DNA of 64,000 bases from Bacteroidia bacterium (GTDB taxonomy: Bacteria > Bacteroidota > Bacteroidia > UKL13-3), in contig JBILBF010000001.1 of NCBI GenBank assembly GCA_044353855.1, positions 54,462-118,461 of the forward strand, given 5' to 3'. The translations under genes and the position numbers were made by a program. Under the pieces are notes generated by a model, which was not told where the DNA came from, ran no database searches, and worked only from the letters and a program-made list of their open reading frames with translations. Shown piece by piece: positions 14,101 through 60,574 of the stretch. Positions within the stretch are counted from its first letter, which is position 1, and every line of letters starts with the position of its first letter.

Positions 14101-17100
14101 ACCTAACGATCCTAACGGAATTAATTTTGATGATTTAAAAATTGAACAAGCTGTAGCTCCAACTGTTAGTACTGGTTCTAAATCAGCAGTAAGTGTGAGT
14201 TCAGCTTTTTTAAGTGCGAACATTGTAAGTAACGGAGGTGTATCTAATACAGCTTCTGGCATTGTAATAGGAACAAATCCAAATCCTGTAATTGGAGGAC
14301 CTGGAGTTACAGATTCGTCATCATTTGTTCCAGTACAAAGTGGTGCCTATTCATTTAATATTACTGGTTTAAGCAACTCTACAACATACTACTATCGTGC
14401 TTATGCCATCAATTCAGTTGGTACTTCTTATGGAGTAGACAGTTCATTCACCACATTAGCTGCTCCAACCCCACCTTCTATTGTTCTCTCGCCAATTGCA
14501 AATGTTGGTCCATTTAGCGCTACGTTAAATGCCAATATTACTGGAGACGGTGGTAGTGTAGTTACAATAAGTGGAATTGTATATAGCACAACTCCAAACC
14601 CAACTATTGGTGGCCCGAGTGTAATAGATTCAACTTCTACCGCTACCACAGGTACGTATTCAATTACACCAGTTGGACTAAATACATTAACTAAATACTA
14701 TTATCGTGCATATGCCATAAATGGTATTGGAACAGCCTATTCATCACAAGATAGTTTCACTACTTTATTTGGAATTAATACAATTCCTTACGCTCAAAAT
14801 TTTGAGGGTGGTGCTGCCAATTGGACAACACAAACAATTGGAACTAATAACGATTGGGTATTAGGAACTCCTACTAAAACTTTCTTGAACGGAGCTCGAA
14901 GTGGCGTAAACGCATGGAATACTGGCTTATCAGCTCAGTATACCAATAACCATGATGCCGCAGTTGTTTCCCCTGTTTTTGATTTTTCTGGTTATGTGAC
15001 CCAACCTTATGTTCGTTTCTTCCATAAGTTTATTACGGAGCCAGGATATGATGCTTTGGTGGTTGAAATTTCAATTAATGGTGGAACCTGGACCAAACTA
15101 GATAACACTCTTGGTACAGGAGGTAACTTTAATAGCACCAATAGTAAAGCCTGGTATAACAGCACAAGTACAAGTGGCTCAATTATTCCGCCTAAATTTT
15201 CAAGTACCACTGGTGGTGTAGGAAGTACTGGAATATATTCAAGTCAAAGCAACGGTTGGATTCAAAGTACCACTACACTTACAGGAGCAATAGGTCAATC
15301 AAATGTACGTTTCAGATTTAGATTTGGTTCTGACGGATCGGATTCACAAGATGGTTGGTCGCTGGATGATATAGAAGTATTGTTTCAAACAGCTCCTCAA
15401 TTAGTTACATCAACAAAATCATCCATAACCACTTCAAGTGCTACAGTTGGTGGTAACATAACAAGCGATGGATTATCAAGCGTTACTGCTAGTGGCGTTG
15501 TAATTGGAACCAGTGCTAGCCCTACAATTGGAGACCCTGGAGTAATTGATTCAGTTACTACTCCCAATATTGGAAGTGGTGTATTCAGCTTTAATGTAAC
15601 TGGTTTATCTTTATCTACCACCTATTTCTATAGAGCATATGCTACCAACTCTATTGGAACTTCATATGGAGCAGACAGCAGCTTTACAACTAATGCTGCC
15701 AATGTTCTACCAACCGTTTTAACTACAGCTGTTACCAATCTTACCGTTAGCAGTGCAACAGTTAATGCCAATATCACCAGCAATGGTGGAGATGCAGTTA
15801 CAGCAAGTGGTATCGTATATGGTACATCACCTAACCCAACCATTGGTGATCCAGGTGTTGTTGATTCAACCACTACTCCATTGGTTTCTTTAGGAACATT
15901 CAGTATTAACCCTGCTGGATTAACCCATACTACCAAGTATTACTATAGAGCTTATGCTACCAATACTGTGGGAACTGCATACAGTGTGCAAGATAGCTTT
16001 ACCACTGCCATTTTGATTAATGCATTCCCGTACACACAAAACTTTGATGCAGGCGCAGCCGGTTGGACTGCTGCTGCCAATGGAGGAGACAATCCTTGGG
16101 AAATAGGTACACCAGCTAAAACGTTTTTGAACGCTGCTTATTCAGGTTCTAATGCTTGGGTTACCAAGTTGGTAGGAGACTACTCTAGTCTTGCAAATTC
16201 CGATGCTGTTGTAGTTTCTCCTCAAATAGATCTTACAACTGCAACCAATCCAGTAATTCGTTTCAAACATAAATTTGATACAGATGCTGATCCTGATTAT
16301 GACGGTGGTGTTCTAGAAATCTCAATTAACGGAGGTTTATGGACTCGATTAAACAATGCATCAGGAACCGGTGCAAACTTTAACACAACAACCAGTTATG
16401 CTTGGTACAACAACGCAGTAGCAAGTGGAACTTTAGGTGCAAATAAATTCAATGGTATTAGCAACGTAGGTTATTCATCGGTTGATGGTAACGGTTGGCT
16501 AGAAAGTGCAACGCCTTTAACTGGTGGAGCAGGGCAAGCAAATGTAAAAGTTCGTTTCCGTTTTTGGGCCGATCAATATGGTGTGGATGAAGGATGGGCA
16601 ATTGATGATATCGAGATTGTAGATGTTGTTGTTCCTTCAACTTTAGCTTCAACAGTAAACCTTACTGCAATTGCTAATACTACAACAACCGTTAACTGGA
16701 CCAATGGTAACGGACAAGGTCGTATGGTAGTTGCACGCTTAACAAGTACACCAGCAGTAGCTCCAACAAATAATACAATATATACACAAAACTCAGCATT
16801 TGGTAGTGGAGAAACAACAGGCGCAGGAAACTTTATTGTATTCCGAAGCAATACCTCATCTGTAGTTGTAAATGGTTTGGCATTACTAACTGATTACACA
16901 TATGATGTGTATGAATACAACGGTAAGTTTATGCATATTGCTTTTGCTGCTGCTGCATCAAACAATGGAAGCACCTTACCTGTAACCTTAACTACATTTT
17001 CCGGAACAACTAAAGATAAAGATGCACAACTTAACTGGGCAACTGCAACAGAAAGTAACAATGCAGGATTTGATTTAGAACGTTCATTAGATGGCCGTAC

Positions 17101-17536
17101 ATTTAGCAAAGTAACATTTGTTAAAGGAGCTGGAAACAGCAACCGTGCTTTAACTTACAACTACAAGGATGTAAATGCTTTTGCAAAAGCAACTGTATTA
17201 TACTACCGCTTAAAACAAGTTGATTTTGATGGTAAATTTACTTACTCACAAGTAGTGAAAGTAACAGCTAACACCATCAATACACAATCGTTTACAGCGT
17301 ATCCTAATCCGTTTACATCAGAATTTAATGTAGCCTTTACAGCTACAACTACTGGTATTGCAACAATAGAAATGGTTGATTTGCAAGGACGTAAAGTTTT
17401 GAGCTCAACCGCAGATATTGGACTAGGAAACAATGTAATACCGGTGAAAAATGAAGCTACCATTTATCCAGGAGTTTATTTTGTACGTTTAACCCTCAAC
17501 GGTGAAACACAAGTAACCAAATTGGTGAAAAACTAA
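8150..17536 (+). CDS. Giant (3128-aa) secreted repetitive surface protein / adhesin. Beta-helix-like repeat region, FN3-like and MAM-like domains, and a T9SS C-terminal sorting domain
   Basis: Signal peptide MKKQVQTFRNLITKILGVGLLSVGLSASVAHA followed by Q. Strong T/S/G/N/A bias. Three copies of a roughly 530-aa N-terminal module. Six FN3-like repeats containing (Y/K)YYYRAYA(T/I)N and three or four MAM-like modules ending in DD(I/L)(E/K)(I/V). The last roughly 80 aa (YPNPFTSEFNVAFTA...GVYFVRLTLNGETQVTKLVKN) match the T9SS type-A C-terminal-domain pattern. Confidence 0.85.
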   Translation: MKKQVQTFRNLITKILGVGLLSVGLSASVAHAQTVLINPTGDGGFDNGSTFAANGWSVSNSVNNPWFVGTPGGGAPMTGNKAYISNDGGITNAYTPASNATNYFWRDITIPSTDSIIHLQFNWAQQGEASYDIWQVFTASTSITPVGVATHPGLGLNNVPAGIAGATFVANGSVLTGVQTASILLPKTLAGTTFRLIFSWKNETGGTQPPASIDNISLISRPAPFNIVSTASGNWSNPSTWSPSVIPLSIDTVTVAATHTVSLDLTGQSSASLNIDGTLDYATTSSSFSVLNNLTVNSSGIFNVFNGSVGKTLNVAKNITNDGTMDFTQTGSVLSLNGTTPQTIGGTGSLTASTIASLTFNNTSTTRTINFNWSNVIVPTTLTFTSGLVNLGLGNSITLGTSGTSLGTLTFTAGNGFTSGKFSRWVGAAGAGSTIAASTIPSFGVGSFPFMNGIGNACHFHKATSALTTAGIFSVEFIGGLNTTATSVPPTESSLTFDQKTNASWAVSTSGGYASAVAHTFAIQGQGTYVAFSSNARLLINETLFGTHQAGTNLPMVQRTGVAAADIVGTYTIGLIGSEVANQSVASGAWDNAATWSLGVPICGQNILINTADSIWIDGSMVSANAGQMLLNGKLTISGSSLTIGCSGNNNLFSASGRLTVSGGQFIMNGNMNFASGSIFTQTGGTITIDGNSGTALTSVLTGTPIMNIATNLVTLTGGTLVFVDGHIGTATADRVLTYTSAATPYPLISTGHTVQFGDGISTQANSTKGFESSLATRFYFGNVVVNTLASSNAFVASSSATVIVNGNLTITAGEFRGGTTNLIVGGNITNNGTLTNTGALVFGQVTQTNMATPTITSQTVGQTVSGTGVFRNLTTSPTANYASVTINNTSAAGVTFSSSQSLLSGTNTGTVSSTLTFTNGMVNTGSNTFILGISTASLGTLTLTNGGFGSGSAFSRWWATAIAGQTITAGAIPTAGVGTYPFVALQSSAPVAFFPRHAYIRQAAASSAGGRITLRHNDVAGISVASIVDGAYTVETRTNSSWDVTTSGITGTPTYTIALSANGTYAAINGNSRITSGSAPLSGTHQAGTRLPHAQRASVTLANLTNTWYMGAANADIAFNTIASGNWEDGSTWNKGIAPTCTDSVVIFDGHQVSINATAATARAIGINLNGRLVVSGNTLTVGCTMNNASIFIRGNFTVSGGTVNVNGSIANDFSGRFQQSGGSIVIDGNDNGVAATSATSHILDAYATTDSSFVLSGGTITIVDPAVAAAAVAFKVFPSLPVNFSTSHTVIFGDGVSTQPGGTNAFNINLFNTGLGLASFGNVIVNAPSGANRFVATTNNLGIIGNLTVTQGNYRMTSAHTVKGNIVNNDTLINTNTLTLADPTGAITSTNTTAQSISGTGKFLNAVTGATAGTANLVVRNSSIGGVTISTPFSVSGTLTLTRGIVNTTATDTFRLGTISAAATLAGGSDTAYINGPFSRTFAASRSATGTYTTAATLYPVGKSGRYLPLFIDPTTNAGGRTVVSAEAFGSNAGTLGTGVTSMSDIRWQSTYTDAANFVSANMRLTDTAAAFTSTTKIVSSATAGGSYTGAPVTITYAAGPPKTITTSTQILAADYIGNFAYGELVTCAAPTNQATVFTVSNLGSSAFNGSYTSAIGGSTHYLVVRYATGGTEVAPSNFTNYAVNAVLGTGTVVANSTGTTFNQTGLTAATGYDYYVYAYNNSGCFGPVYNTTSPLFATVTTCAAGIPTPVGAAAVNISNNSFVARWNPIANPGATYVLDVSTNSGFSSFVSGYNSLSTYTDTFAVVSGLTGNTGYFYRVRAIDGLCASTLSTNQTVTTFCNPIVTLPWTEGFESLATGTNLFPSCWNFSNTLSSWFIASPLAFTGTKSLRRSWSTNGWAFTPPVSMTAGTPYLFSYYVRTADNTTPAYDVTIAVGTGQNASAMTTTLLTQTNYQSTTWTQFTVSFTPGTTADYSFGINVIAPNDPNGINFDDLKIEQAVAPTVSTGSKSAVSVSSAFLSANIVSNGGVSNTASGIVIGTNPNPVIGGPGVTDSSSFVPVQSGAYSFNITGLSNSTTYYYRAYAINSVGTSYGVDSSFTTLAAPTPPSIVLSPIANVGPFSATLNANITGDGGSVVTISGIVYSTTPNPTIGGPSVIDSTSTATTGTYSITPVGLNTLTKYYYRAYAINGIGTAYSSQDSFTTLFGINTIPYAQNFEGGAANWTTQTIGTNNDWVLGTPTKTFLNGARSGVNAWNTGLSAQYTNNHDAAVVSPVFDFSGYVTQPYVRFFHKFITEPGYDALVVEISINGGTWTKLDNTLGTGGNFNSTNSKAWYNSTSTSGSIIPPKFSSTTGGVGSTGIYSSQSNGWIQSTTTLTGAIGQSNVRFRFRFGSDGSDSQDGWSLDDIEVLFQTAPQLVTSTKSSITTSSATVGGNITSDGLSSVTASGVVIGTSASPTIGDPGVIDSVTTPNIGSGVFSFNVTGLSLSTTYFYRAYATNSIGTSYGADSSFTTNAANVLPTVLTTAVTNLTVSSATVNANITSNGGDAVTASGIVYGTSPNPTIGDPGVVDSTTTPLVSLGTFSINPAGLTHTTKYYYRAYATNTVGTAYSVQDSFTTAILINAFPYTQNFDAGAAGWTAAANGGDNPWEIGTPAKTFLNAAYSGSNAWVTKLVGDYSSLANSDAVVVSPQIDLTTATNPVIRFKHKFDTDADPDYDGGVLEISINGGLWTRLNNASGTGANFNTTTSYAWYNNAVASGTLGANKFNGISNVGYSSVDGNGWLESATPLTGGAGQANVKVRFRFWADQYGVDEGWAIDDIEIVDVVVPSTLASTVNLTAIANTTTTVNWTNGNGQGRMVVARLTSTPAVAPTNNTIYTQNSAFGSGETTGAGNFIVFRSNTSSVVVNGLALLTDYTYDVYEYNGKFMHIAFAAAASNNGSTLPVTLTTFSGTTKDKDAQLNWATATESNNAGFDLERSLDGRTFSKVTFVKGAGNSNRALTYNYKDVNAFAKATVLYYRLKQVDFDGKFTYSQVVKVTANTINTQSFTAYPNPFTSEFNVAFTATTTGIATIEMVDLQGRKVLSSTADIGLGNNVIPVKNEATIYPGVYFVRLTLNGETQVTKLVKN
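14150..15389 (+). repeat. Internal supermodule 1 of the giant gene: FN3-like, FN3-like, then MAM-like
   Basis: At protein level it parallels 15390-16625: two roughly 100-aa repeats ending ...YYYRAYAIN..GT.Y, then an (F/P)Y.QNF..GAA.W...GWS/AIDDIE module. Confidence 0.6.
15390..16625 (+). repeat. Internal supermodule 2 of the giant gene: a tandem duplicate of 14150-15389
   Basis: Same domain order and conserved motifs (TTYFYRAYATNSIGTSYG, TKYYYRAYATNTVGTAYS, GWAIDDIEIV). Nucleotide identity has diverged, so this is an old in-frame tandem duplication of about 1.24 kb. Confidence 0.6.
17290..17533 (+). other. T9SS type-A C-terminal sorting domain (CTD) of the giant protein
   Basis: Terminal roughly 80 aa with the conserved pattern of Por-secretion-tail domains (YPNP..., GxY.V.L, terminal K-rich strand). 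Confidence 0.7.
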
Positions 17537-22912: not shown

Positions 22913-23731
22913 ATGTCAAAAAAGAAAATACTGTTCATTTCTTCGGAAATGACCCCATTCCTTCAAGTTAGTAGTGTAGGAGAATTAGCCAGAAGACTTC
23001 CACAAGCCATTCAGGAAAAAGACAATGAAATTCGGGTGTTAATGCCTCGTTTCGGTTGTATTAACGAACGTAGAAATCGCCTTCATGAGGTAGTTCGACT
23101 TTCAGGAATTAATATCACCATAGATGATAACGATAATCCATTGACCATTAAAGTTGCATCCTTGCAAGAAGCCAAAATGCAAGTTTACTTTTTAGACAAT
23201 GAAGATTATTTTCACCGTAAGTTTGTGTATACTGATGAAAACAATAAGTTTTTTGGTGACAATGACGAACGAACCATCTTTTTTTGTAAAGGAGCATTGG
23301 AAACGGTAAAAAAACTAGGCTGGCAACCCGATATTATTCATTGCCATGGTTGGATGACAAGTTTGATTCCATTGTATATGAAAACTATATACAAATCGGA
23401 ACCTGTGTTTAAAAATGCTAAAGTTGTGTATTCAGTGTTCGAAACACAATTTGAATCTAACTTAGGCAAAGAATTTGCCCGTAAAGCAAGTTTAAATACC
23501 ATTGATAATAAACAAACATCATGCTTAAGTGATTCATCATGCTCGGGCTTATATATGAGTGGAATAACGCATGCTGATGCCGTTGTTAAATGTAGTGACG
23601 AAATTGCTCCAGAAGTAACTACTTTTATGAAAAAGCAAAAGGGCAAAATCATGATGGAACATAATAATGAAGAAGGATACGTTGAAGAATATATTAAACT
23701 TTATGATAGTTTGCTTCAAAGACAGAATTAG
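22913..23731 (+). CDS. Truncated glycogen/starch-synthase-like protein (GT5 N-terminal domain only, about 270 aa)
   Basis: KILFISSEMTPF..VGEL..LP (the GlgA N-terminal ADP-glucose-binding-domain signature) and HCHGWMTSLIPLYMK. It lacks the C-terminal GT1 half of full-length GlgA, which is about 480 aa. Divergent from panC. Confidence 0.6.
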   Translation: MSKKKILFISSEMTPFLQVSSVGELARRLPQAIQEKDNEIRVLMPRFGCINERRNRLHEVVRLSGINITIDDNDNPLTIKVASLQEAKMQVYFLDNEDYFHRKFVYTDENNKFFGDNDERTIFFCKGALETVKKLGWQPDIIHCHGWMTSLIPLYMKTIYKSEPVFKNAKVVYSVFETQFESNLGKEFARKASLNTIDNKQTSCLSDSSCSGLYMSGITHADAVVKCSDEIAPEVTTFMKKQKGKIMMEHNNEEGYVEEYIKLYDSLLQRQN

Positions 23732-25061
23732 TCCTTTTTCACTTTTACTATTTGTTTGTACGGTGTTTACTTTTTCTTCTTGCCTTAAAAAAGAAGATAC
23801 AGTAGGTGATGATTTTGTTGGTGCAATAGTTGGTTTTGATGTTCAATCATCTGATACATCTACCCTTGTAGCATATACCTCCCAAGATGATTCGGTTAAT
23901 ACCCGATTATTGACATATTACTATTTAGGAAAAATGAATGATGCTGATTTAGGCATTGCTACTTCGTCCATTATCACGCAATTTTCATTACCCATTCTTG
24001 GCAATTCGTATGACAATATTACAGCCAAAATAGATTCTATAGTTGTTCAGCTTAAGTATTTTAGAAATACTTCTTATTATGGAAATCAACAATCCATTCA
24101 GGAATTTACGGTATACCAATTGGCCGAAAATCTAAATTATGATAGTGTATTTCGCTCGAACAGAAACTATGTATATGATGCAACTAAACCATTAGGTTCA
24201 ACTCAAACCTCATTTAACCATATGGAAGATTCCATAAAGTTTAAATTGGGAAGTTCGTTAGTTGCTTTACCGGGTCATATGCGCATCAATATTAGTGATC
24301 CCTCTTTTATTCAATTTGTTAAAAATGCTCCCAACAGTGTATTTGCAAATGATGCAGCATTTATAGCTTATTTTAAAGGCCTTATAATTATTCCTACAAC
24401 AAACCCATTGGGTTTAAATGAGGGGGCTATTGCCAATATTGACTTGCGAAACGACAATTTTAACAGAAATACGATTTCATCTGTTGTTGTATATTATAAC
24501 GATAGTTTAAGTGCTTCATTTCCTATTTATAATGATGTAAACATACGTCTCAATCAATTTAAACATCAACATACCATAACCATTCCTGTTCAACCTCTGC
24601 TAGGAGGAAGCCATCAAAACATAAATTATGTAAAAGGAAATGCTGGACTCAAAACACGCATCCTCATTCCACATTTATTTGATTATATAAAAAATAAAAA
24701 TATTGCCATTTCTAAGGCTGAACTGATTGTAACAGCTGCAAATGCTAGAGATAATGCACCTTTCGAACTAAGCCCTGTGTTGAGTTTATATGATTCGGAC
24801 GAGAATGGAAGAACAACATTTATTAGAGATTATAATCCGTTTACAGATAGTAGAAATTATTATGGAGGAATAGAGAATAATAACACCTATTCGTTTACCA
24901 TTACAAAACATATCCAACAGTTATTCAAACAATATCAAGAGCTTGGCGTTAACCAAAATTATGGACTCAATTTATTTGTTTCTTCCGATCCATATCGCGT
25001 AATTTTGGATACAAGTCCAGGTAAACTAAAACTTAAGCTAAGCTACACTGTTATCAAATAA
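23703..25061 (+). CDS. Hypothetical lipoprotein (possibly the DUF4270 family)
   Basis: Lipoprotein signal LLLFVCTVFTFSS|C. The ORF track starts at 23667, but the internal Met at 23703 gives a standard-length signal peptide. No catalytic motifs. The family assignment is from memory only. Confidence 0.45.
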   Translation: MIVCFKDRISPFSLLLFVCTVFTFSSCLKKEDTVGDDFVGAIVGFDVQSSDTSTLVAYTSQDDSVNTRLLTYYYLGKMNDADLGIATSSIITQFSLPILGNSYDNITAKIDSIVVQLKYFRNTSYYGNQQSIQEFTVYQLAENLNYDSVFRSNRNYVYDATKPLGSTQTSFNHMEDSIKFKLGSSLVALPGHMRINISDPSFIQFVKNAPNSVFANDAAFIAYFKGLIIIPTTNPLGLNEGAIANIDLRNDNFNRNTISSVVVYYNDSLSASFPIYNDVNIRLNQFKHQHTITIPVQPLLGGSHQNINYVKGNAGLKTRILIPHLFDYIKNKNIAISKAELIVTAANARDNAPFELSPVLSLYDSDENGRTTFIRDYNPFTDSRNYYGGIENNNTYSFTITKHIQQLFKQYQELGVNQNYGLNLFVSSDPYRVILDTSPGKLKLKLSYTVIK

Positions 25062-37141: not shown

Positions 37142-39547
37142 TCACAAAAACTTAGGAAACTGACTTGGATTATACTCGTGCATCATGTTCATGATGGTTT
37201 CAAAAATATCTTCGGCACTTGGTTTGGTAAAATAATCGCCATCGGTTCCATAAGGTGGGCGGTGTGCTTTTGCTGTTATGGTAAGAGGTTTTGCATCTAA
37301 GTATTTATACCCTTCTTGATCTTCCAATACATGCTGCATCATATAAGCTGTTGCTGCTCCCGGAACATCTTCATCAATAAAAATAACTTTATTGGTTTTT
37401 TTAATCGACTCCACAATGCTGTGGTTTATATCAAAGGGTAATAAACTTTGTACATCTATTAACTCACAACTTATGCCAAACTCCTGTAATTGTTTTATGG
37501 CTTCTTCGGCAATTCTTAATGTGCTGCCGTAACTTACTATTGTTACATCCTCACCTTCAATAAGGGTTTCGGGTATGCCAAGTGGTGTTGTGTATTCGCC
37601 CAAATTATCAGGTAAACGCTCTTTTAAACGGTACCCATTTAAGCATTCAATAATAAGTGCAGGCTCATCGCTTTGTAACATGGTATTGTAAAAACCTGCG
37701 GCTTGTACCATATTGCGAGGCACCAATACATGCATTCCCCTAATCGAATTTAATATCATACCAATAGGTGAGCCGCTATGCCAAATTCCTTCCAACCTGT
37801 GACCACGTGTACGCACAATTAACGGTGCTTTTTGTCCGCCTTTGGTTCGGTATTGCAAAGTTGCTAAATCATCGCTTAGCGGTTGTAATCCATACAATAA
37901 ATAATCTAAATATTGAATCTCAGCAATTGGGCGTAAACCGCGTAAGGCTGCTCCTATTCCTTGTCCAATAATGGTTAACTCTCGAATGCCTGTATCAAAC
38001 ACACGGCTTTCGCCAAACTTTTCTTGCAGGCCAGCAAATCCTTGGTTTACATCCCCTATTTTCCCTACATCTTCGCCAAAAGCAAATACCCGTGGATCAC
38101 GCTCAATAGCAATATCAAAAAATGCTTGCATCACTTCCCTTCCATCAACCATTTTGCTGCTTTCACTAAATATAGGTTTTACTTCTGAAATATTTACAGC
38201 AGCTTCATTGCTTTCGCTAAACAAATTAGAGTTGTACCTAATGGCATTAACGTTATTGTATTGTTGTTTATAATTAATTAAAGCAGAGCGTTCAGGTAAT
38301 TCTATTTTGTAAGTTAGGCGTAGCGCTTTATTAATAGCAACACCAATATCTTTTCTGATAGGTTCGGCAATTTGTGTTAACTCATTTGCCAAGCCTACAA
38401 TTTCAGTTACACCAGATGCCGTTGCTAATTCTTGCAATAGTTCTGTGGCTTGCTTTATATCTTCTTTTATAGGATTAAGATAAGCTTCCCAAGCAGCTTT
38501 TTTAGAATCGTTAACTTGCTTCTTGGCAGCAGATTCTATTGTTTCGAGTTCTTCATTTGTAGCAATACTGTTATCGGTAATGAATTCACGGAACTTAACC
38601 ATACAGTCATATTCCAATTCCCAAGCTAACCGTTCTTTGCTTTTATATCTTTCATGCGAACCAGAAGTAGAATGGCCTTGCGGCTGAGTTAACTCAGTAA
38701 CGTGCACCAATACGGGAACATGTTCTTCGCGTGCAATTTTTCCTGCTCTTTCATAAGCGCCAACCAACTCAGCATAATTCCAGCCTTTAACCACGATAAT
38801 TTCAAAGCCATCACCTTTATCATCGCGCTGAAAGCCTTTTAATATTTCAGAAATATTTTCTTTGGTGGTTTGGTATTTTGCTGGAACAGAAATTCCAAAT
38901 CCATCATCCCAAACTGATATCACCATGGGAATTTGCAAAACACCCGCAGCATTTATCGCCTCAAAAAAATGTCCTTCGCTACTGCTTGCATTACCAATTG
39001 TGCCCCATGCTACTTCATTTCCATTATCACTAAAGTTGTTTTCACCAATAATGGCAGCATTTTCTCTGTAATATTTACTCGCATGTGCCAATCCAACCAA
39101 ACGTAACATTTGTCCTGCAGTTGGAGATATATCTGATGATGAGTTTTTTTGATCTTTTAACGATTTCCAACTTCCATCACTGTTTAAACTGCGTGTACCA
39201 AAATGTCCGTTCATCATTCTTCCCGCACTTGCTGGTTCTGCCTCTACATCTGTGTGTGCATATAATTGAGCAAAAAACTCTTGAACAGTGTGTTGTCCAA
39301 TAGCCATCATAAAAGTTTGGTCGCGGTAATAGCCACTTCTAAAGTCGCCATTTTTAAACGCTTTAGCCATAGCTATTTGTGGCAATTCCTTACCATCGCC
39401 AAAAATTCCAAACTTTGCTTTGCCAGTAAGTACTTCTTTACGGCCCAATAAACTTGTTTGTCGACTGCGGTATGCAATCGTATAATCCTCTAATACAGTT
39501 TGTTTAAATTCTGCCGCTGTTAGCTTGGCTGGCTGTGTTTTACTCAT
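37142..39547 (-). CDS. Fused alpha/beta E1 component of a TPP-dependent 2-oxoacid dehydrogenase (branched-chain alpha-keto acid dehydrogenase E1-like)
   Basis: N-terminal E1-alpha TPP-binding region and C-terminal E1-beta transketolase-like domains in one roughly 800-aa polypeptide. The ORF track extends to 39586 (MPIIYLK...); the MSKTQ start at 39547 is the alternative. Confidence 0.7.
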   Translation of the reverse strand: MSKTQPAKLTAAEFKQTVLEDYTIAYRSRQTSLLGRKEVLTGKAKFGIFGDGKELPQIAMAKAFKNGDFRSGYYRDQTFMMAIGQHTVQEFFAQLYAHTDVEAEPASAGRMMNGHFGTRSLNSDGSWKSLKDQKNSSSDISPTAGQMLRLVGLAHASKYYRENAAIIGENNFSDNGNEVAWGTIGNASSSEGHFFEAINAAGVLQIPMVISVWDDGFGISVPAKYQTTKENISEILKGFQRDDKGDGFEIIVVKGWNYAELVGAYERAGKIAREEHVPVLVHVTELTQPQGHSTSGSHERYKSKERLAWELEYDCMVKFREFITDNSIATNEELETIESAAKKQVNDSKKAAWEAYLNPIKEDIKQATELLQELATASGVTEIVGLANELTQIAEPIRKDIGVAINKALRLTYKIELPERSALINYKQQYNNVNAIRYNSNLFSESNEAAVNISEVKPIFSESSKMVDGREVMQAFFDIAIERDPRVFAFGEDVGKIGDVNQGFAGLQEKFGESRVFDTGIRELTIIGQGIGAALRGLRPIAEIQYLDYLLYGLQPLSDDLATLQYRTKGGQKAPLIVRTRGHRLEGIWHSGSPIGMILNSIRGMHVLVPRNMVQAAGFYNTMLQSDEPALIIECLNGYRLKERLPDNLGEYTTPLGIPETLIEGEDVTIVSYGSTLRIAEEAIKQLQEFGISCELIDVQSLLPFDINHSIVESIKKTNKVIFIDEDVPGAATAYMMQHVLEDQEGYKYLDAKPLTITAKAHRPPYGTDGDYFTKPSAEDIFETIMNMMHEYNPSQFPKFL

Positions 39548-39742
39548 AAGCGCTAAAGTTGATTGTTTCAAATATATTATTGGCAATGTAAAAACGGTTA
39601 TGCTGATTAAAAATTAAATTAAGAAAATATTATATCACCACACTTTTGTATAATTGTGGTACAAAACTACATTTGAAGAGTTATCAAAAAAAGTTTGGAA
39701 CAGTTTTTGAAATTCATCAATCAAATAACATTAAACAACAAT

Positions 39743-43329: not shown

Positions 43330-43397
43330 TGAAGGTTATCACTCTTTAAAAAACGAATAATAACAATATATTTGTGGCTCTTCTGAGCACAATTCTT

Positions 43398-46118
43398 ATG
43401 GATAAATTTTCGTATATTTCTAATGCCGATGTAAACGTAATTGACGATTTGTATCAGCAATATAAAGCCAACCCTGATGCGGTTGAATTTGGTTGGAAAA
43501 AGTTTTTTGAAGGCTTTGATATGGGCCAACAAAAATTTAATGGCAATACAAAAGGTGTAGCTGTATCCGAAAACTTTATCAAAGAAATTAATGTATTAAA
43601 CCTTATTGAAGGCTATAGAACACGGGGCCATTTATTTACCGAAACAAATCCTGTACGCGAGCGCAGAAAGTATGAGCCAACACTTGCCATTCAAAATTTT
43701 GGCTTAAATGCAAAGGATTTGGAAGCCACTTTTAATGCGGGTGTAGAAATAGGTTTGGGTGTTGCAAAACTCAAAGATATTATTGATATGCTGGAGCAAA
43801 CATATTGCGGGCATATTGGTGCTGAGTACATGTACATGCGCGAACCCAAAGCTATTAAATGGTTGCAACAAAAAATGGAAAGCACCCGTAATATTCCAAA
43901 GCTTTCTATTGAACAAAAACGCCATATTTTAGCTAAAATAAATCAAGCTACTGTTTTCGAAAATTTTATTCATACCAAATTTGTTGGACAAAAACGATTT
44001 TCGCTTGAAGGCTTAGAAAACATGATTCCGGCATTGGATGAAGTAATACAATATGGAGCCGAATTGGGTATTGAAGAGTTTGTACTGGGCATGGCACACA
44101 GAGGCCGATTAAATGTATTGGCTAATATTTTAGGAAAATCATATGCGGATATTTTTAAAGAATTTGAAGGGAAAAGTGCCGAAGATGAAGGTATTTTTGA
44201 AGGTGATGTAAAATATCATTTAGGATTTAGCAGCGAAATAAAAACACGCTCTGGAAAAAATATTCACTTAAGTCTTTCTCCAAATCCATCTCATTTAGAA
44301 ACGGTAAACCCAGTTGTTAAAGGATTAACACGCGCAAAATTAGATAAAAAACACCAAGGCGATATAGATAAAGTAGCTCCTATTTTAATTCATGGAGATG
44401 CTTCAATTGCTGGGCAAGGTATATTGTATGAACTATTGCAAATGGCTGGTTTAAAAGCATACAATGTAGGTGGCTGTATTCATATAGTAGCCAATAATCA
44501 AATTGGATTTACCACAAATTATACCGATGCCCGAACTTCAACCTATTGTACCGATGTGGCTAAAACTACACTTTGTCCTGTGTTTCATGTAAACGCGGAT
44601 GATGTAGAAGCAGTAATTTTTACCATACGACTGGCAATGGAATACCGCCAAGAATTTAACAGCGATGTGTTTATTGATATGTTGGGCTACCGCAAGTATG
44701 GCCATAATGAAGGAGATGAACCTCGATTTACGCAACCCTTATTATATAAAGCTATAGGTGCACACCAAAACCCACGCGAAATTTACAACCAAAAACTAAC
44801 CACAGCAGGAAGTGTAGAAGCAGATTTGGCAAAGGAAATGGACAAAGATTTTAGAAGCCAGTTACAAGAAAAACTTGAACAAGCTAAAAGTGCCGAAACC
44901 AAAAAAGGACAAAACTTTTTGGCTGCAAGATGGGAAGGATTTAGAGCAAGCAAACGCGAAGATTTTGAATCATCTCCAGTTACTGCCGTTAATAAAGAAT
45001 TGTTTTTAAAACTTGCCGAGAAAATAACCAATATCCCTGAGGGCTTTAGAGCCTTTAGTAAAATCGAAAAATTGTTTACTGATCGTAAAAATATGATTCA
45101 GAACAATAACTACGATTGGGCTATGGGCGAACTAATGGCATACGCAACAATTAGCAACGAAGGTAATAATGTGCGCATGAGCGGACAAGATTGTGAGCGT
45201 GGTACATTTTCGCATAGGCATGCCATTATCAAACAAGAAGACAGCGAAAAAGAACACAATATTTTTGATAGTTTAGGTGAAGATAAAAAAGGAGAAGTAT
45301 CCTTTTACAACTCTTTGCTCAGCGAATATGCAGTGCTTGGTTTTGAATATGGATACAGCATGTTTTCGCCAAAAGACTTAACCATTTGGGAAGCACAGTT
45401 TGGCGATTTTGCCAATGGTGCACAAATCATCATTGACCAATATTTGGCCAGTGCATCTACCAAATGGAAAACCTTTAGTGGCTTGGTATTAATGTTGCCA
45501 CATGGCCATGAAGGACAAGGACCTGAACATTCATCGGCACGTTTAGAGCGTTTTTTACAACTAAGTGCCAATTGGAATATGCAGGTGGTAAACATTACTT
45601 CACCTGCAAACTATTTTCATGCTTTACGCAGACAATTGCAACGTGATTACCGATTACCTTTGGTAGTAATGACACCCAAAAGTTTATTGCGCCACCCATT
45701 ATGTATTAGCAAACTGGAGGATTTTACTAATGGCGGTTTTCAAGAAGTAATTGATGATACTTACAGCGATACTAAAAAAGTAAAAAGGGTATTGTTGTGC
45801 TCGGGCAAAATATATTACGAACTATTGGAACGCCAACAAAGTACTAACCGAAAAGATATTGCTATTGTTCGGGTAGAGCAATTATACCCAATGCCCGAAA
45901 CACAATTAGCAGCTATATATAAAAAATATGCAGATGCCGAAATTTGTTGGGTACAAGAAGAGCCTAAAAACATGGGAACTTGGTTGTACTTATTACGCTG
46001 GGATAATAACCGTATTTTAAAACGCATTTCGCGCGAGAGCAGTTCAACACCCGCAACTGGTTACAGCAAAGTGCATGCAACCGAACAACTGGCTTTAATT
46101 GACGAAGCGTTTGCGTAA
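43398..46118 (+). CDS. sucA: 2-oxoglutarate dehydrogenase E1 component
   Basis: MDKFSYISNA start (the ORF track gives 43374). TPP-binding and transketolase-like domains, about 900 aa. No sucB follows it. Confidence 0.9.
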   Translation: MDKFSYISNADVNVIDDLYQQYKANPDAVEFGWKKFFEGFDMGQQKFNGNTKGVAVSENFIKEINVLNLIEGYRTRGHLFTETNPVRERRKYEPTLAIQNFGLNAKDLEATFNAGVEIGLGVAKLKDIIDMLEQTYCGHIGAEYMYMREPKAIKWLQQKMESTRNIPKLSIEQKRHILAKINQATVFENFIHTKFVGQKRFSLEGLENMIPALDEVIQYGAELGIEEFVLGMAHRGRLNVLANILGKSYADIFKEFEGKSAEDEGIFEGDVKYHLGFSSEIKTRSGKNIHLSLSPNPSHLETVNPVVKGLTRAKLDKKHQGDIDKVAPILIHGDASIAGQGILYELLQMAGLKAYNVGGCIHIVANNQIGFTTNYTDARTSTYCTDVAKTTLCPVFHVNADDVEAVIFTIRLAMEYRQEFNSDVFIDMLGYRKYGHNEGDEPRFTQPLLYKAIGAHQNPREIYNQKLTTAGSVEADLAKEMDKDFRSQLQEKLEQAKSAETKKGQNFLAARWEGFRASKREDFESSPVTAVNKELFLKLAEKITNIPEGFRAFSKIEKLFTDRKNMIQNNNYDWAMGELMAYATISNEGNNVRMSGQDCERGTFSHRHAIIKQEDSEKEHNIFDSLGEDKKGEVSFYNSLLSEYAVLGFEYGYSMFSPKDLTIWEAQFGDFANGAQIIIDQYLASASTKWKTFSGLVLMLPHGHEGQGPEHSSARLERFLQLSANWNMQVVNITSPANYFHALRRQLQRDYRLPLVVMTPKSLLRHPLCISKLEDFTNGGFQEVIDDTYSDTKKVKRVLLCSGKIYYELLERQQSTNRKDIAIVRVEQLYPMPETQLAAIYKKYADAEICWVQEEPKNMGTWLYLLRWDNNRILKRISRESSSTPATGYSKVHATEQLALIDEAFA

Positions 46119-46140
46119 TTAATAATTGATTTGTTCAAAC

Positions 46141-46176
46141 AAAAATGCCCGCTCGGTTGGAGTGGGCATTTTTGTT
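46141..46176. terminator. Bidirectional rho-independent terminator between sucA and the convergent lipoprotein gene
   Basis: AAAAATGCCCGCTC ggttg GAGTGGGCATTTTT: a 12-bp stem with one G-U pair. Confidence 0.75.
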
Positions 46177-46186
46177 TTCAACGTAT

Positions 46187-47446
46187 TTACTCCAAATCGT
46201 TACTCAACTTATACCTACAAATGCGGTTGTTTTTTTTGTCGGCAACAAACACCATTTTGCGAAAAAAACAAACCCCACTGGGATCGTTAAAACTAAAAGG
46301 TCCACTTGACGAACCATCGCTACCAGGGCCACCAAAACTTACAATGGCTTGCTTACGCAAACCCGAATTAGGCGGAGGATTTATGCCTTCATATCCTTGA
46401 TTGGTAAATATATAAAGCGAATCTGTTCCACTATCAACAATAAAAAGGTACTGTAAATTATCGGGTGAAATATAACAATCTTCTGGTTTTTTGAACCGCG
46501 AAGATTCGTATAAAAATCGATCTGCTTTGCTGTAATCAAAATTTAACAAAGAAGGAGTTTCACTGTATTGTGTTCCCAATTCAGGGTCGTCAAATACAGA
46601 AATGCCTAACACTCTATATTCAATAGGTTTAGTTTGATCTGCTTGTGCTATGTAAAAATTTTTACTCGTACTCATTCCTTGTAAACGTTGGGGTGGGCCT
46701 ACTGCCGTGGCAATAGAGGAAAGACCAATAGCCGATTTGATACTAGATGACGTTGGATTTAATCCTTGTGCATAGCCCGTATTTGTTCCTATAGCATCGT
46801 AAACCAAAACGCCATTATCAGGCCTTACAAATGAATTTAAATCATTAAGCGGTCCGGTACGGCATACATACAATGTATTATCAGCAATAGTAGCTAAGCC
46901 CGTAAATTGAACAGCTTCATCATTGGCAAAACGATTTCCTGTAGATGCTCTAGAATCATCACAAAGAGGATGAATAAGGGTATCTAAATATTGAACTACT
47001 CCTGCAGCTGTATTGGCTAAATGATACACACAAGCACGGTTTCCAAAACTCGTTTCTACACGACCTGTAACATAGGTGTGCAGACGTCTATCTTGGGTTA
47101 CATCAGTTGCTCCATTTATAGTTATGCGTTTACCAATTGCCCCTTTTTGATCTAAAATTACCAACTCGTTATCAGCAGGGTTTAGTTCATCATTCAGCAC
47201 TACTATATAAATGAACTCGTCATATCCTACATAAACGTCTACAGGGTTGGTAACTCCTTGAAAAAATGGAAACACGGGAACATAACCAACATTGCTTGGG
47301 TTTAAATTGGGGTCAATACTCCCTTGTTCGAATATTTCATTTACTTGATCATCCTCTTTACTGCCAAACAATGCTGAGCATGATGACATCAAAACTAAAC
47401 AGATGATAATGCCGAAATAAATTTTACCTTTTAATATATGTTGCAT
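46187..47446 (-). CDS. NHL-repeat (beta-propeller-like) lipoprotein, function unknown
   Basis: Lipoprotein signal LVLMSS|C. Repeats of the type LYVCRTGPLND, LFIVDSGTDSLYIF and VFVADKKNNRICRY. Its start codon overlaps the stop of the upstream PorV/PorQ-family gene (TAATG). Confidence 0.5.
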   Translation of the reverse strand: MQHILKGKIYFGIIICLVLMSSCSALFGSKEDDQVNEIFEQGSIDPNLNPSNVGYVPVFPFFQGVTNPVDVYVGYDEFIYIVVLNDELNPADNELVILDQKGAIGKRITINGATDVTQDRRLHTYVTGRVETSFGNRACVYHLANTAAGVVQYLDTLIHPLCDDSRASTGNRFANDEAVQFTGLATIADNTLYVCRTGPLNDLNSFVRPDNGVLVYDAIGTNTGYAQGLNPTSSSIKSAIGLSSIATAVGPPQRLQGMSTSKNFYIAQADQTKPIEYRVLGISVFDDPELGTQYSETPSLLNFDYSKADRFLYESSRFKKPEDCYISPDNLQYLFIVDSGTDSLYIFTNQGYEGINPPPNSGLRKQAIVSFGGPGSDGSSSGPFSFNDPSGVCFFRKMVFVADKKNNRICRYKLSNDLE

Positions 47447-48450
47447 TATCTAATAGTTAAAGCCAATGTTATGCGGTGATTATTGCCCAAATTATTTTTA
47501 GCTAAAAATCCGTAATCAATTGTAAAACCTCCAAAACTTCTGAGTATTTTTAATCCTATTCCAGCTGAAGGAGCGATATATTTTTCATCAGAACCAAACT
47601 CATATCCAGCTCTCAAAAATCCTGTTTTTAAATAGGTGTATTCCATGCCCAGTGCATAAGTTTCATTATTATCGGTAGGATGATTTAATTGGCCTGATGC
47701 AGTTAATACATGTTCGTTGGTATGGATGGGATCAAAAGCTGCACCTACTCTAAATATACCTGGAACCGTTACCGTGCTAAAACTTGTAATATCGGTTGGC
47801 CCATCAAATTTTAACACAGTTACATCACCAGATGGACTCACATTAAAACCGAAGTTGCTAAAGTTAATTCCGAAGCGAGTATGTTTTACACCCACATCAT
47901 ATTTTAAACCCAAATCAAATAATGCATTGTGAACCGTAACTCCCGCAAATCCTTCGTTGGCATATTTAGCATTTACACCAAAACTAAAACTATTGGTAAG
48001 TATTTTGGCGTACGTTAGCCCAACTAAATAGTTAGCCACAGTAAATTGTCGACCAGTTCCTTGCGATTCAAATTCTGTTGTTTCATCCATAGTTCCAAAG
48101 TTCATAGAGAATACTTGAATACCCACAAAGGAAAGTTTTCCAACTTTAAATACAGAACCAACAAAATTGGAACTTGTATTACCAAAATACCGAGTATGCG
48201 AAGTCATAATATTAACCTTTCCTGTATCCACTTGAGTTATAGCTGCTGGATTCCAATACATAGCAGATACATCATTCGTAATAGCAACTGCTGAACCTCC
48301 CAACGACATTCCTCGAGCATCGGGACTTATTTTTAAAAACTGCATACCCGAACCACCCGTGCGAGAGTTGCCGAAAGTAGGAAGTATTTGGGCCTTAACA
48401 ATGGAAAGACCAAAACATACAAAAACTAAAATAAAATTTAAGCCACGCAT
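47446..48450 (-). CDS. PorV/PorQ-family outer-membrane beta-barrel protein (PorQ-like size, 334 aa)
   Basis: Signal peptide ...IVKA|Q. N-terminal FLKISPDARGMSLGGSAVAI..DVSAMYWNPAAI motif typical of the T9SS PorV/PorQ (FadL-like) family. Predicted beta-barrel. PorQ assigned over PorV on size alone. Confidence 0.5.
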   Translation of the reverse strand: MRGLNFILVFVCFGLSIVKAQILPTFGNSRTGGSGMQFLKISPDARGMSLGGSAVAITNDVSAMYWNPAAITQVDTGKVNIMTSHTRYFGNTSSNFVGSVFKVGKLSFVGIQVFSMNFGTMDETTEFESQGTGRQFTVANYLVGLTYAKILTNSFSFGVNAKYANEGFAGVTVHNALFDLGLKYDVGVKHTRFGINFSNFGFNVSPSGDVTVLKFDGPTDITSFSTVTVPGIFRVGAAFDPIHTNEHVLTASGQLNHPTDNNETYALGMEYTYLKTGFLRAGYEFGSDEKYIAPSAGIGLKILRSFGGFTIDYGFLAKNNLGNNHRITLALTIR

Positions 48451-48559
48451 TTAGGAAGGCAAAATAAAGGCAAAAATTGGAAATCCCGATGTTATTAAAA
48501 AGTGAATTTGTAATGTGACAATAAAAGACTCAATTTGCAAGCACTATTATTCAACTTAA

Positions 48560-50137
48560 ATGTCGGGAAAATTTCACCTTCAACTTCTTTCAATCAGTAT
48601 TTTAAGTTCAATTTTACTTATCGTAAGCTGGCAACCTTATTCATTTACGCTTGTATTATTTGGGGCGTTTATTCCTTTATTGTTTGTCGAAAAAAAATTG
48701 CGTAACACTCAAAAACACGTTGGTTGGTTATTTTTATATGCTTTCATTACTTTTTTTACATGGAATATAGGCACAACTTATTGGCTTTGGAATGCTACAG
48801 TTGAAGGAGCATATGCTGCGTTTACCATAAATACCTTGTTAATGTGTTTGCCCGTTCTTGTTTACCACTATTACGCTAAACGGGTAGTTGCTGCAAATTC
48901 CGAATGGATTTTTATTGTAACTTGGTTATCGTTTGAATATTTGCACCATACTTGGGAATTTAGCTGGCCCTGGCTGAGCCTAGGAAATGCATTTGCTCCG
49001 TATACTTGGGCTATACAATGGTATGAAATTACGGGTGTAATGGGTGGCAGTTTTTGGGTATTGTTTGCAAATATTAAAGTGTTTAGGCTCATTGATAAAT
49101 GGAATGAAAATAGTCAGCGAATCAATATTTCGAGAGCGATGAACTTGCTTTTTTTTATAGGCGTTGCTCCACTATTTTTGTCGTGGTATGTTTTGGATCA
49201 GTACAAACAGGTTGGTATTCCGATGAATGTAACTGTTGTTCAACCCAATATTGATCCGTATACTGATAAATTTAACGGTCAAACACCCCAACAACAAACA
49301 CAAACGTTATTGACATTAGCAAACGGGGCATCTGATAGTTCAACCCGCCTCATTTGTTTTCCAGAAACAGCTTTGCAAGGTGGTTTGGATGAAAAGCAAT
49401 TGTTGTATGAAGAAACAGTTCAACAAGTCAAACAATTTGTAGCTGTACATCCAAATATGTCCATTTTAAGTGGAGCAGATACCTATACCTTTTATCCTGT
49501 TGCTGATAAAACTTTTTCGGCACGTAAATACAATGATGAACTTTACTATGATGCATTTAATACTGCATTACTAATAGATAAATCTGATAGTATTCAACTA
49601 TACCACAAAGCAAAATTAGTTCCTGGAGTTGAAAGTATGCCTTATCAACAAGCTCTCGATTTTTTAGGCGAAGCAGCCATCAATTTAGGAGGCACAGCCG
49701 GAAGTTTAGGAAGAAATACCGAGGCAGAAAACTTTGATATAGGCAATAATCAATGGGTGGCCCCTGTTATTTGTTATGAAAGTGTATTTGGTGAATATAT
49801 AGCAACGTATGTGCGCAAAGGAGCAGGTTTATTATGTGTAGTAACCAATGATGGCTGGTGGGGTAATACTCCGGGACATAGGCAACATTTTGATTATGCC
49901 CGATTGAGAGCCATTGAAACACGAAGGTATATTGCGCGTTCAGCCAATACAGGCATTTCTGGATTTATTGATGATAAAGGGAATGTTCTATCTGAAACTA
50001 AATGGTGGATTCCCGATGCACAACAAGCAACTTTATATTACCAAACACACCTAACTTTTTATGTAAAGTACGCTACTTATATTGAGTTACTTCCAGTATT
50101 GATATTGTTATTGGCAGTGTTAAGAGGCAAAAGATAA
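48560..50137 (+). CDS. lnt: Apolipoprotein N-acyltransferase
   Basis: N-terminal multi-TM region and C-terminal CN-hydrolase domain (ICYESVFGE). Confidence 0.8.
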   Translation: MSGKFHLQLLSISILSSILLIVSWQPYSFTLVLFGAFIPLLFVEKKLRNTQKHVGWLFLYAFITFFTWNIGTTYWLWNATVEGAYAAFTINTLLMCLPVLVYHYYAKRVVAANSEWIFIVTWLSFEYLHHTWEFSWPWLSLGNAFAPYTWAIQWYEITGVMGGSFWVLFANIKVFRLIDKWNENSQRINISRAMNLLFFIGVAPLFLSWYVLDQYKQVGIPMNVTVVQPNIDPYTDKFNGQTPQQQTQTLLTLANGASDSSTRLICFPETALQGGLDEKQLLYEETVQQVKQFVAVHPNMSILSGADTYTFYPVADKTFSARKYNDELYYDAFNTALLIDKSDSIQLYHKAKLVPGVESMPYQQALDFLGEAAINLGGTAGSLGRNTEAENFDIGNNQWVAPVICYESVFGEYIATYVRKGAGLLCVVTNDGWWGNTPGHRQHFDYARLRAIETRRYIARSANTGISGFIDDKGNVLSETKWWIPDAQQATLYYQTHLTFYVKYATYIELLPVLILLLAVLRGKR

Positions 50138-58636: not shown

Positions 58637-60574
58637 TTATTCCTTTACAAATCGTTGTGGTAATAGAATGTTTCCATCAGTTGTTTTTACAACAATAAAA
58701 TAAATCCCTTGTGCTAAATTTTGAACATTAAAGGTAGCTTGGTTTACCGTAAATTGTTGGATACCTAAAGCATCCAAAACAGTTACTGATTGGATGGGAA
58801 AATGAAGACTTTGAATAGTTATTGTAGATTGAACAGGATTAGGATAGTAATACATGCCGTTGCTGTTTTCGTGTTCATTTAATGAATTATACGTTGGGTC
58901 TTTTAACACTGTGGCTTTATTCATTAACCAATTATTAGGATCAATGGTTATGTTGCTAACGGTTCCAATCACCGGTATTTGAAATGTACAGTTTAATTGA
59001 TTGAAAGAGACCCTTACCAACGTATCGCCTTGTGGTTGTTTAACCAATATATCGAGGGGTGTTATAAATAATGGCGTTGTTACAGTGCTGGTGGTTTGAT
59101 TGGCTGCTATGTATACATTATTTCCTATTTGATTCCACTTTACAGCAAAGGAAGGATAACCTTCACCATAAAACCATTGAGCAAAAACTTGTGTAAAATC
59201 ATGGTTGGTAAATTGCTCCAACATTAATTTAAAATCGGCAGTACTTGCGGTTTTAAATGCAAATTGTTGTTGATAAGCCTTTAGAAATGCAAAAAACAAT
59301 GAATCGTTTTGAAGTTCGTAACGTAGAATATGAATAAATGCACTCCCTTTATTATAGGTTAAACGAGAATCGAACATACGCGATACATTGGTTGTATCTT
59401 CAAACCAAATACTTCCTCCAGGCGATTGCATAACAATATTGTGAACTGTTTGCATATGTGCAGGTGCTAAAGCTGAATCTAACTTTTGTAAAGCAACATA
59501 TTCTGTGTAGGATGCAAACCCTTCATTGAGCCATATATCATTCCATGTATTGCACGTAACATGATCGCCAAACCACTGATGACCGAGTTCATGAGCTACA
59601 ATTTCAAAATCTATTACGCCAATACTTGTCATCGTTTGATGTTCCATTCCTCCACTAAAAGGTGCCATTGCATGTCCATACTTTTCCTTTGCAAATGGAT
59701 AGGCTCCAAAAGTTTCCGAAAAGGTTTCTAACATTGGAGCAGTTTGATCCAATATCGGTTTAAATGTTATCAGTGTTTGTGGATTATCATATATATAATC
59801 TTGAATTAAAACCGAATCGCCATTGATTATTGCATACGTTTTATACTCTACATATTTGGCTACAGCAACTGATACTAAATAATAATCAATTGGGTATATT
59901 GACTTCCACTCGTAACGTACTTTATTATTAGGTAACGAAACTACTTGCTGTAACAAACCTTGCGAACCTGCTTTGTTTTCGGCAGAAGTAGTTATAAAAG
60001 TTACAGTCGAATCTATTTTATCTTGCAATGATTGTTTGCAAGGCCACCACTCATAAGCAGAATAGGGTTGACTAAGCGACCATGTTGCTTCGTTGCCCCA
60101 ACGGCCCGATTTACCTGTACTAAAACCCGCACCTATTGCCGCATTTGCTGCTGCTGGTGCTGTGCCGTGGTAATACATTTTTACATCAACAATTTGGTTA
60201 TTCAAAACTGGGATTGGAAGATGTACATAACAAAAATGTTGCACTCGGCTGAATGAAATATTATCTCCATTAGGCAACTCTACCGAATCAACCGTAAAGT
60301 TATTGTGTAATTCAACTCCAAAAGTATCCAATTGAGAAGATACAACTGTTGCACGGGTACGCACATTACCGCTAATGGTTGTTGAGGTGCGTTCAATCGC
60401 TAAATCTAACTGGTGAAAGGTTACATCATACTCATTCATGAGTTGCTGTTGCAATGTTGTTGCTGCTTTGTGATAGGCTTGCTGGTAAAATTTTTGTTTG
60501 CCTGCTGCGCAAAAATGTTGTTGGCCAAAAAGAGGAAACGAAAGGAACAACAAACAACCCGTGAATATTTTCAT
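58637..60574 (-). CDS. M1-family zinc aminopeptidase with a T9SS C-terminal sorting domain
   Basis: HELGHQWFG(x18)E gluzincin motif, GAMEN-like region and a signal peptide. The C-terminal YYPNPVQSTITIQ...GIYFIVVKTTDG is a T9SS type-A CTD. Confidence 0.8.
   Translation of the reverse strand: MKIFTGCLLFLSFPLFGQQHFCAAGKQKFYQQAYHKAATTLQQQLMNEYDVTFHQLDLAIERTSTTISGNVRTRATVVSSQLDTFGVELHNNFTVDSVELPNGDNISFSRVQHFCYVHLPIPVLNNQIVDVKMYYHGTAPAAANAAIGAGFSTGKSGRWGNEATWSLSQPYSAYEWWPCKQSLQDKIDSTVTFITTSAENKAGSQGLLQQVVSLPNNKVRYEWKSIYPIDYYLVSVAVAKYVEYKTYAIINGDSVLIQDYIYDNPQTLITFKPILDQTAPMLETFSETFGAYPFAKEKYGHAMAPFSGGMEHQTMTSIGVIDFEIVAHELGHQWFGDHVTCNTWNDIWLNEGFASYTEYVALQKLDSALAPAHMQTVHNIVMQSPGGSIWFEDTTNVSRMFDSRLTYNKGSAFIHILRYELQNDSLFFAFLKAYQQQFAFKTASTADFKLMLEQFTNHDFTQVFAQWFYGEGYPSFAVKWNQIGNNVYIAANQTTSTVTTPLFITPLDILVKQPQGDTLVRVSFNQLNCTFQIPVIGTVSNITIDPNNWLMNKATVLKDPTYNSLNEHENSNGMYYYPNPVQSTITIQSLHFPIQSVTVLDALGIQQFTVNQATFNVQNLAQGIYFIVVKTTDGNILLPQRFVKE

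Follow-up and report, generated by a model that had tools for sequence, protein, structure and literature searches.

The 64,000-nucleotide stretch of Bacteroidia bacterium DNA analysed here (the window; GCA_044353855.1, contig JBILBF010000001.1, positions 54,462 to 118,461 of the forward strand) carries on its minus strand two overlapping genes, the first for a barrel protein of the outer membrane (47446..48450, 334 aa) and the second for a β-propeller lipoprotein (46187..47446, 419 aa), and the question raised by this locus is whether the two products work together and, if they do, as what kind of device. It is very probable that the two gene products function together as a single unit of the outer membrane. 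The reading that we prefer, and to which we would give somewhat more than an even chance, is that they encode an obligate outer-membrane complex in which the barrel, of the PorV family, is the dedicated platform for the NHL-type propeller lipoprotein. This reading is based on the strict synteny of the pair, the membership of the barrel in the PorV/PorQ family, the conserved N-termini of both proteins and the conserved extracellular loops L2 and L5 of the barrel.

Both open reading frames (ORFs) lie where the first-pass annotation, made from the letters of this stretch, had placed them, and independent metagenome contigs with identical proteins yield the same two products when their genes are called. 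The stop/start overlap TAATG (47444..47448, minus strand) was likewise confirmed: the minus strand reads ATTAGATAATGCAACAT at this point, one base (window position 47446) being common to the TAA stop of the barrel gene and the ATG start of the lipoprotein gene, and the junction between the two genes reads ATTAGATAATGCAAC in minus-strand letters. The first-pass annotation took the overlap to imply ‘co-translation’, which as worded goes too far; what the overlap does support is co-transcription and possible translational coupling of the pair. In the close clade the genes overlap or are separated by no more than 15 nt at 76 of 77 loci, the form of the junction varying among relatives (ATGA, TAATG or gaps of 0–15 nt) while its tightness is kept. 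ATGA or TAATG overlaps predominate in the distant clade, where the four seemingly larger gaps are artefacts of the first-ATG rule, as the ORFs overlap there too.

The gene-neighbourhood check that the first-pass annotation had proposed was carried out in genomes and in metagenomes, and the lipoprotein gene was found to be syntenic with the barrel gene in every locus where this could be judged. When one genome was scanned per species, relatives turned up in 193 genomes; among the best 80 loci, which were retained, all 77 with upstream room (lipoprotein identity 53–82%) carry the barrel gene on the same strand and immediately upstream, the remaining three being cut by a contig end. A metagenome scan seeded with a clade whose identity to the window lipoprotein is only about 33% gave the same barrel–lipoprotein order in 78/78 loci with upstream room, and the pair is also present in both of the loci at 29% identity. 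It should be noted that the 157 loci with enough upstream DNA to judge were all fetched through the lipoprotein; in a reverse look-up, both of the two barrel homologues obtained have an overlapping downstream gene, of 415 or 422 aa. The carriers of the pair are almost all uncultured Bacteroidota. Beyond the pair itself the surroundings change: lnt is the divergent upstream neighbour in 27/80 loci and thiL lies upstream on the same strand in 25/80, and no other conserved neighbour was seen across the 80 genome loci. [quoted passage not shown]

The family of the barrel was assigned with profile hidden Markov models (HMMs). Against the NCBIfam PorV_fam model (NF033709) the protein scores 173.2 bits (cut-off 90) with residues 34–332 covered, and against the Pfam PorV model (PF19572) it scores 27.8 bits, right at the threshold of 27. 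The orthologue-level models all failed, with 81.2 bits of the 220 needed for PorQ (NF033711; alignment limited to residues 27–205), 66.4 of 250 for PorV (NF033710) and 63.8 of 325 for PorV2 (NF052325), and the barrel is therefore treated as a paralogue of its own. Two distant orthologues behave in the same way, scoring 166 and 156 bits against PorV_fam and a failing 95 and 90 bits against PorQ. The Pfam Toluene_X model (PF03349) aligns to residues 32–161 only, at 28.7 bits against a gathering threshold of 29.7. Thus the first-pass annotation was right to place the protein in the PorV/PorQ family rather than among generic FadL-like transporters, as PGAP-style annotation models also do (they already call it ‘PorV/PorQ family protein’), and its identification as PorQ has to be withdrawn. 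By sequence the barrel is a PorV/PorQ-family member separate from PorQ, PorV and PorV2.

Searches of the PDB agree with this assignment. The sole match was PorV of Flavobacterium johnsoniae (6h3i_F), with an E-value of 1e-6 for the single sequence and 1.7e-15 for a 41-sequence profile; no FadL, TodX or BamG chain in the PDB was reached by sequence or profile, BamG giving nothing at E-values up to 10. A generic FadL transporter was for these reasons rejected as the primary identity of the barrel: the NF033709 cut-off is passed, Toluene_X stays below threshold and the PDB profile finds PorV only. In the AlphaFold2 (AF2) model (predicted local distance difference test, pLDDT, 78) the protein forms 14 strands, together with a hatch-like region at the N-terminus and turns that are short on the periplasmic side, and the best Foldseek matches of this model are again PorV chains of F. 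johnsoniae (8gl6_F and 6h3i_F; E 3.5e-13, template modelling (TM) score 0.66–0.67), followed by TbuX, FadL and TodX (TM about 0.6) and then by BamG chains at ranks 18–24.

What is conserved in this barrel is not spread evenly over it. Residues 1–20 (48391..48450, minus strand) form a signal peptide with predicted cleavage between VKA and QILP. In Bacteroidota the substrates of signal peptidase I start, once cleaved, at Gln. In all 59 distinct N-termini the aligned mature part begins with Gln21, a residue conserved to 95% or more among 112 outer-membrane proteins, from which we infer cleavage before Gln21. The mature protein then opens with a conserved N-tail, Q-[ILV]-L-P-x-F-G-x-x-R-x-G (residues 21–35; 48346..48390, minus strand), the second most conserved region in the same 112 proteins (0.78), where identity is 95% or higher at Q21, P24, G27, R30 and G32. 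This tail has a pLDDT below 50 in the monomer model, and such a pairing of conservation with low confidence is typical of a segment that needs a partner, or the interior of the barrel, to become ordered. Predicted extracellular loop L5 has a conservation of 0.88 across the 112 distinct barrels, in which D260, N261 and E263 are more than 95% identical, and is preceded by L255, H257 and P258 of strand S9; predicted extracellular loop L2, with the motif T-E-F-x-P-x-G-T-G, has a conservation of 0.71, and the periplasmic turns are the least conserved part at 0.50. The residues that are invariant and specific to the subfamily concentrate in the N-tail and in loops L2 and L5.

The second protein begins with a lipoprotein signal peptide by sequence, a hydrophobic helix that ends in LVLMSS-C23, with acylation predicted at the cysteine. 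Cys23 does not vary among 44 sequences with identities as low as 23%, and position-specific counts show that it starts a conserved N-terminal tether, C-x-x-[FYL]-[FL]-G-x-K-x-D (residues 23–53; 47288..47380, minus strand), which the model leaves poorly ordered at a pLDDT of 50–56. The N-termini of both proteins are thus among their most conserved parts, yet are of low confidence in the monomer models, and this combination was counted in favour of a complex. Residues ~54–415 (46202..47287, minus strand) were modelled by AF2 as a six-bladed β-propeller (pLDDT 84.2, predicted TM score 0.80), and the protein qualifies as an NHL-repeat propeller of six blades, whose last blade is the C-terminus; together with the invariant lipobox cysteine this bears out the earlier description of an NHL β-propeller lipoprotein. 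At the level of family models there is little to find: no NCBIfam model matched, Pfam yielded one sub-threshold NHL repeat only, and neither database detected a T9SS sorting domain in it, of type A (Por_Secre_tail) or of type B (CHU_C). Homologues number 486, and all of the named ones are labelled ‘hypothetical’. A HMMER search of 1.84 billion representatives placed the family in 283 clusters at E<=1e-3 and in 105 at E<=1e-10; the lipoprotein family is small and specific.

As regards the activity of the propeller, its best structural matches are non-enzymatic NHL binding domains, and the residues conserved across the family are structural positions of the NHL repeat. No conserved His, Asp or metal-binding cluster, and no evident catalytic one, was seen in the family alignment, and since no catalytic constellation is conserved a binding or scaffold module is more likely than an enzyme. 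[quoted passage not shown] Over the 41 sequences of the close-clade alignment D155, T156, D342 and S343 are invariant, L157 is nearly so and position 344 is not conserved; D342 and S343 are nearly invariant in the wider family as well. Glycosylation at these positions would fit an extracytoplasmic site, in either orientation of the protein, and the tripeptides may simply be structural residues of the propeller.

How the two proteins might fit together can be proposed from these features and from characterised relatives. Characterised members of the PorV/PorQ family each hold a specific partner protein (PMC10202324), and they bind it through their extracellular loops, as PorV does with its cargo and PorU, and PorQ with PorZ (PMC10202324, PMC10947112). 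BamG and BamG2, barrels of the FadL superfamily, bind the N-terminus of the lipoprotein encoded in the same operon, BamH and BamH2, respectively (PMC12578637, PMC12611786). In the complex that we prefer, a self-contained operon would encode the barrel and the lipid-anchored propeller, both exported by Sec; signal peptidase I would cut the barrel to give a mature start at Gln21, the lipoprotein would be acylated at Cys23 and the β-barrel assembly machinery (BAM) would insert the barrel into the outer membrane. The tether of the lipoprotein (C-x-x-F-F/L-G-x-K-x-D) would then dock on the barrel and its conserved N-tail, and the propeller would seat on extracellular loops L2 and L5, an arrangement that would mirror PorQ holding PorZ, PorV holding PorU and BamG holding BamH. 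A more specific proposal, which we put forward as possible although on balance doubtful, is that the pair represents an unrecognised class in which a PorV-family barrel has taken a lipoprotein as its cognate partner and has adopted the tether mode of BamG–BamH, either to hold or display the propeller on the cell surface independently of the T9SS or as a new accessory sub-complex of the T9SS, in lineages so far known from metagenomes only.

Several points weigh against this picture. Strict synteny argues for a functional link, which need not be physical contact. The assignment of loops and turns in the barrel rests on the AF2 model, with its pLDDT of 78, and on the general topology rule for outer-membrane proteins. 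The side of the membrane on which the propeller lies is also in question. [quoted passage not shown] In the distant clade 27/42 distinct N-termini do reach this number, and a K-x-D/E cluster at +6 to +10 is found in both clades. We lean slightly towards the surface.

An alternative is that the pair is a lineage-specific T9SS attachment sub-complex, with the barrel acting as PorQ and the propeller replacing PorZ, in the delivery of anionic lipopolysaccharide or in the service of the PorU sortase. PorQ is indeed the closest orthologue model for these barrels (81–95 bits, compared with 56–66 for PorV), but the window protein lies far under the 220-bit cut-off and aligns through its N-terminal half alone. 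PorZ is likewise built from β-propellers and is held by PorQ (PMC5121618, PMC10947112); PorQ, however, binds PorZ via a retained C-terminal domain (CTD; PMC10202324), and the partner encoded here has none. The organism does use type IX secretion, as can be concluded from the two type A CTD cargo proteins in the window, although further T9SS genes are not conserved beside the pair. Taken with the failed PorQ assignment these differences make the replacement of PorQ and PorZ unlikely.

The pair could also be an uptake channel of the FadL type for a hydrophobic or small substrate, with the propeller capturing that substrate, or processing it chemically in the manner of, say, a lactonase or lyase, before or after it passes through, and this too we think improbable. 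The barrel profile matches PorV alone in the PDB, with no FadL, TodX or BamG; the fold of the propeller is closest to binding domains that are not enzymes; its conservation is structural, with no His/Asp/metal cluster; and catabolic genes are not conserved nearby. Least probable, and in our view very unlikely, is that the two proteins are merely co-expressed in one process and never touch, the overlap reflecting operon compaction only; stop/start overlaps are common in bacterial operons, but an isolated two-gene unit has here been kept in ~160 loci with shuffled flanks, down to 29% identity, and the characterised members of the barrel family hold a partner (PMC10202324).

A 68-nt spacer separates the lipoprotein gene from sucA, which converges on it (43374..46118, plus strand; 906 aa in other pipelines, 914 aa as the GTG ORF), and folds as a single long hairpin with A and T runs on its flanks (~46133..46182). 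Its free energy is −25.2 kcal/mol for the minus-strand transcript and −28.9 for the plus-strand one, with z-scores of −6.65 and −6.30, and 0/200 shuffles fold as well; the stem of ~18 bp is unusually long, and a simple terminator scan caught a 5-bp core only. The hairpin is one strong bidirectional intrinsic terminator that serves both sucA and the lipoprotein gene, so that the earlier mention of ‘strong bidirectional terminators’ holds for strength and direction and has to be reduced in number to one. On the other side a divergent intergenic region of 109 bp (48451..48559, from the spacing of the ORFs) separates the barrel gene from lnt, and from its position it presumably holds the operon promoter; an exact copy of the Bacteroidota −7 motif TAnnTTTG is absent from this region, and sigma-70-like matches in it are no more frequent than in shuffles. 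The G+C content of the pair (37.3%) is close to that of the window (36.9%), and the pair therefore looks native.

The lnt gene of the window (48560..50137, plus strand) encodes a canonical apolipoprotein N-acyltransferase (LNT_N and CN_hydrolase domains); its place beside a lipoprotein operon may be coincidental. It is not conserved there in the other clades. A distant relative (locus L162, 1..7763; GCA_028285465.1, JANQPD010000087.1) is the sole locus seen with a possibly functional neighbourhood. There the pair ends a same-strand gene run that opens with a protein bearing a T9SS CTD of type A and goes on with a protein of unassigned function (496 aa), a TonB-dependent receptor (943 aa), the barrel and the lipoprotein, and a small CHU_C (type B CTD) protein comes after the pair.

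Elsewhere in the window, 8150..17536 (plus strand) encodes a giant protein of 3128 aa that has fn3, G8 and MAM/Reelin-like domains as well as a type A Por_Secre_tail at residues 3051–3126, by its domains a predicted very large T9SS cargo protein or adhesin. A second predicted T9SS cargo, a 645-aa protein resembling M1-family aminopeptidases, is encoded by 58637..60574 (minus strand) and has the type A domain TIGR04183 at residues 577–636. The ORF 23667..25061 (plus strand; 464 aa) gives a weak full-length match to the NCBIfam BamH model NF053686 (58 bits against 420, E 6e-16), and it may code for a diverged lipoprotein of the BamH type. The first bases of this ORF overlap the last ones of 22913..23731 (plus strand), which encodes 272 aa that match only the N-terminal half of glycogen/starch synthase (residues ~1–240 of models of 475–514) and may be a glgA that has been truncated or split, or else a gene for a single domain. 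A stretch of 9 kb holds two large E1 genes of 2-oxoacid dehydrogenases, sucA and 37142..39586 (minus strand), the latter encoding an 814-aa protein of the fused E1 alpha/beta type (E1_dh and transketolase domains).

It remains to set the pair beside the systems that it resembles. The closest are PorQ–PorZ and PorV–PorU from the T9SS attachment complex of Porphyromonas gingivalis (PorV also being known from F. johnsoniae, 6h3i and 8gl6), whose barrels belong to the same family, NF033709; PorV is the best PDB match of the present barrel in both sequence and fold, and in these systems each cognate barrel holds a single, specific partner on the surface of the cell. Like the lipoprotein here, PorZ is a β-propeller protein. 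Unlike PorZ and PorU, which are T9SS cargo with a retained CTD, the partner here is a lipoprotein of the Sec/lipobox type without a CTD, and in comparison with PorQ–PorZ the propeller is a single one of the six-bladed NHL type, the genes overlap and T9SS genes are not conserved around them.

BamG–BamH and BamG2–BamH2 (9hiv, 9hjm and 9n2d) also have a 14-strand barrel of the FadL superfamily with a conserved extended N-tail; BamG binds the conserved N-terminus of BamH, the genes for BamG2 and BamH2 are adjacent, as are those of the pair, and the Bacteroidota BAM complex has a six-bladed propeller lipoprotein of its own, BamI. However, the barrel here is nearer to PorV than to BamG, and BamH is a crescent-shaped scaffold rather than a propeller. 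Identification of the barrel as BamG and of the lipoprotein as BamH or BamI was considered and rejected, as there is no BamG match in the PDB by sequence or profile and BamG ranks low in Foldseek; the lipoprotein gave no match to BamH_fj, and its family profile found no BamI chain in the PDB.

PorP/SprF-like barrels and the type B CTD proteins encoded with them likewise come as operon pairs, the cognate barrel being the carrier or anchor of one particular secreted partner, but these barrels are of another family and their partners have a type B CTD and cross the T9SS, neither of which holds for the lipoprotein here. FadL, TodX and TbuX channels share the fold of the barrel (14 strands and an N-terminal hatch); FadL-type channels need no dedicated lipoprotein, and against Toluene_X the present barrel stays below threshold. 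A search of the literature found no PorV-family paralogue paired with an NHL lipoprotein, and this lipoprotein and its pairing with the barrel are undescribed. For a lipoprotein family with several hundred members and no annotation, an assigned partner would be a first handle on function. The PorV-family barrels characterised so far are seen as carrying or anchoring T9SS CTD proteins, and in 2025 barrels of the FadL superfamily were reportedly shown to serve surface lipoproteins as platforms in the BAM machine of Bacteroidota; a strictly conserved PorV-family barrel with a lipoprotein that lacks a CTD would link these two ideas in a new and easily recognised outer-membrane module of the Bacteroidota.

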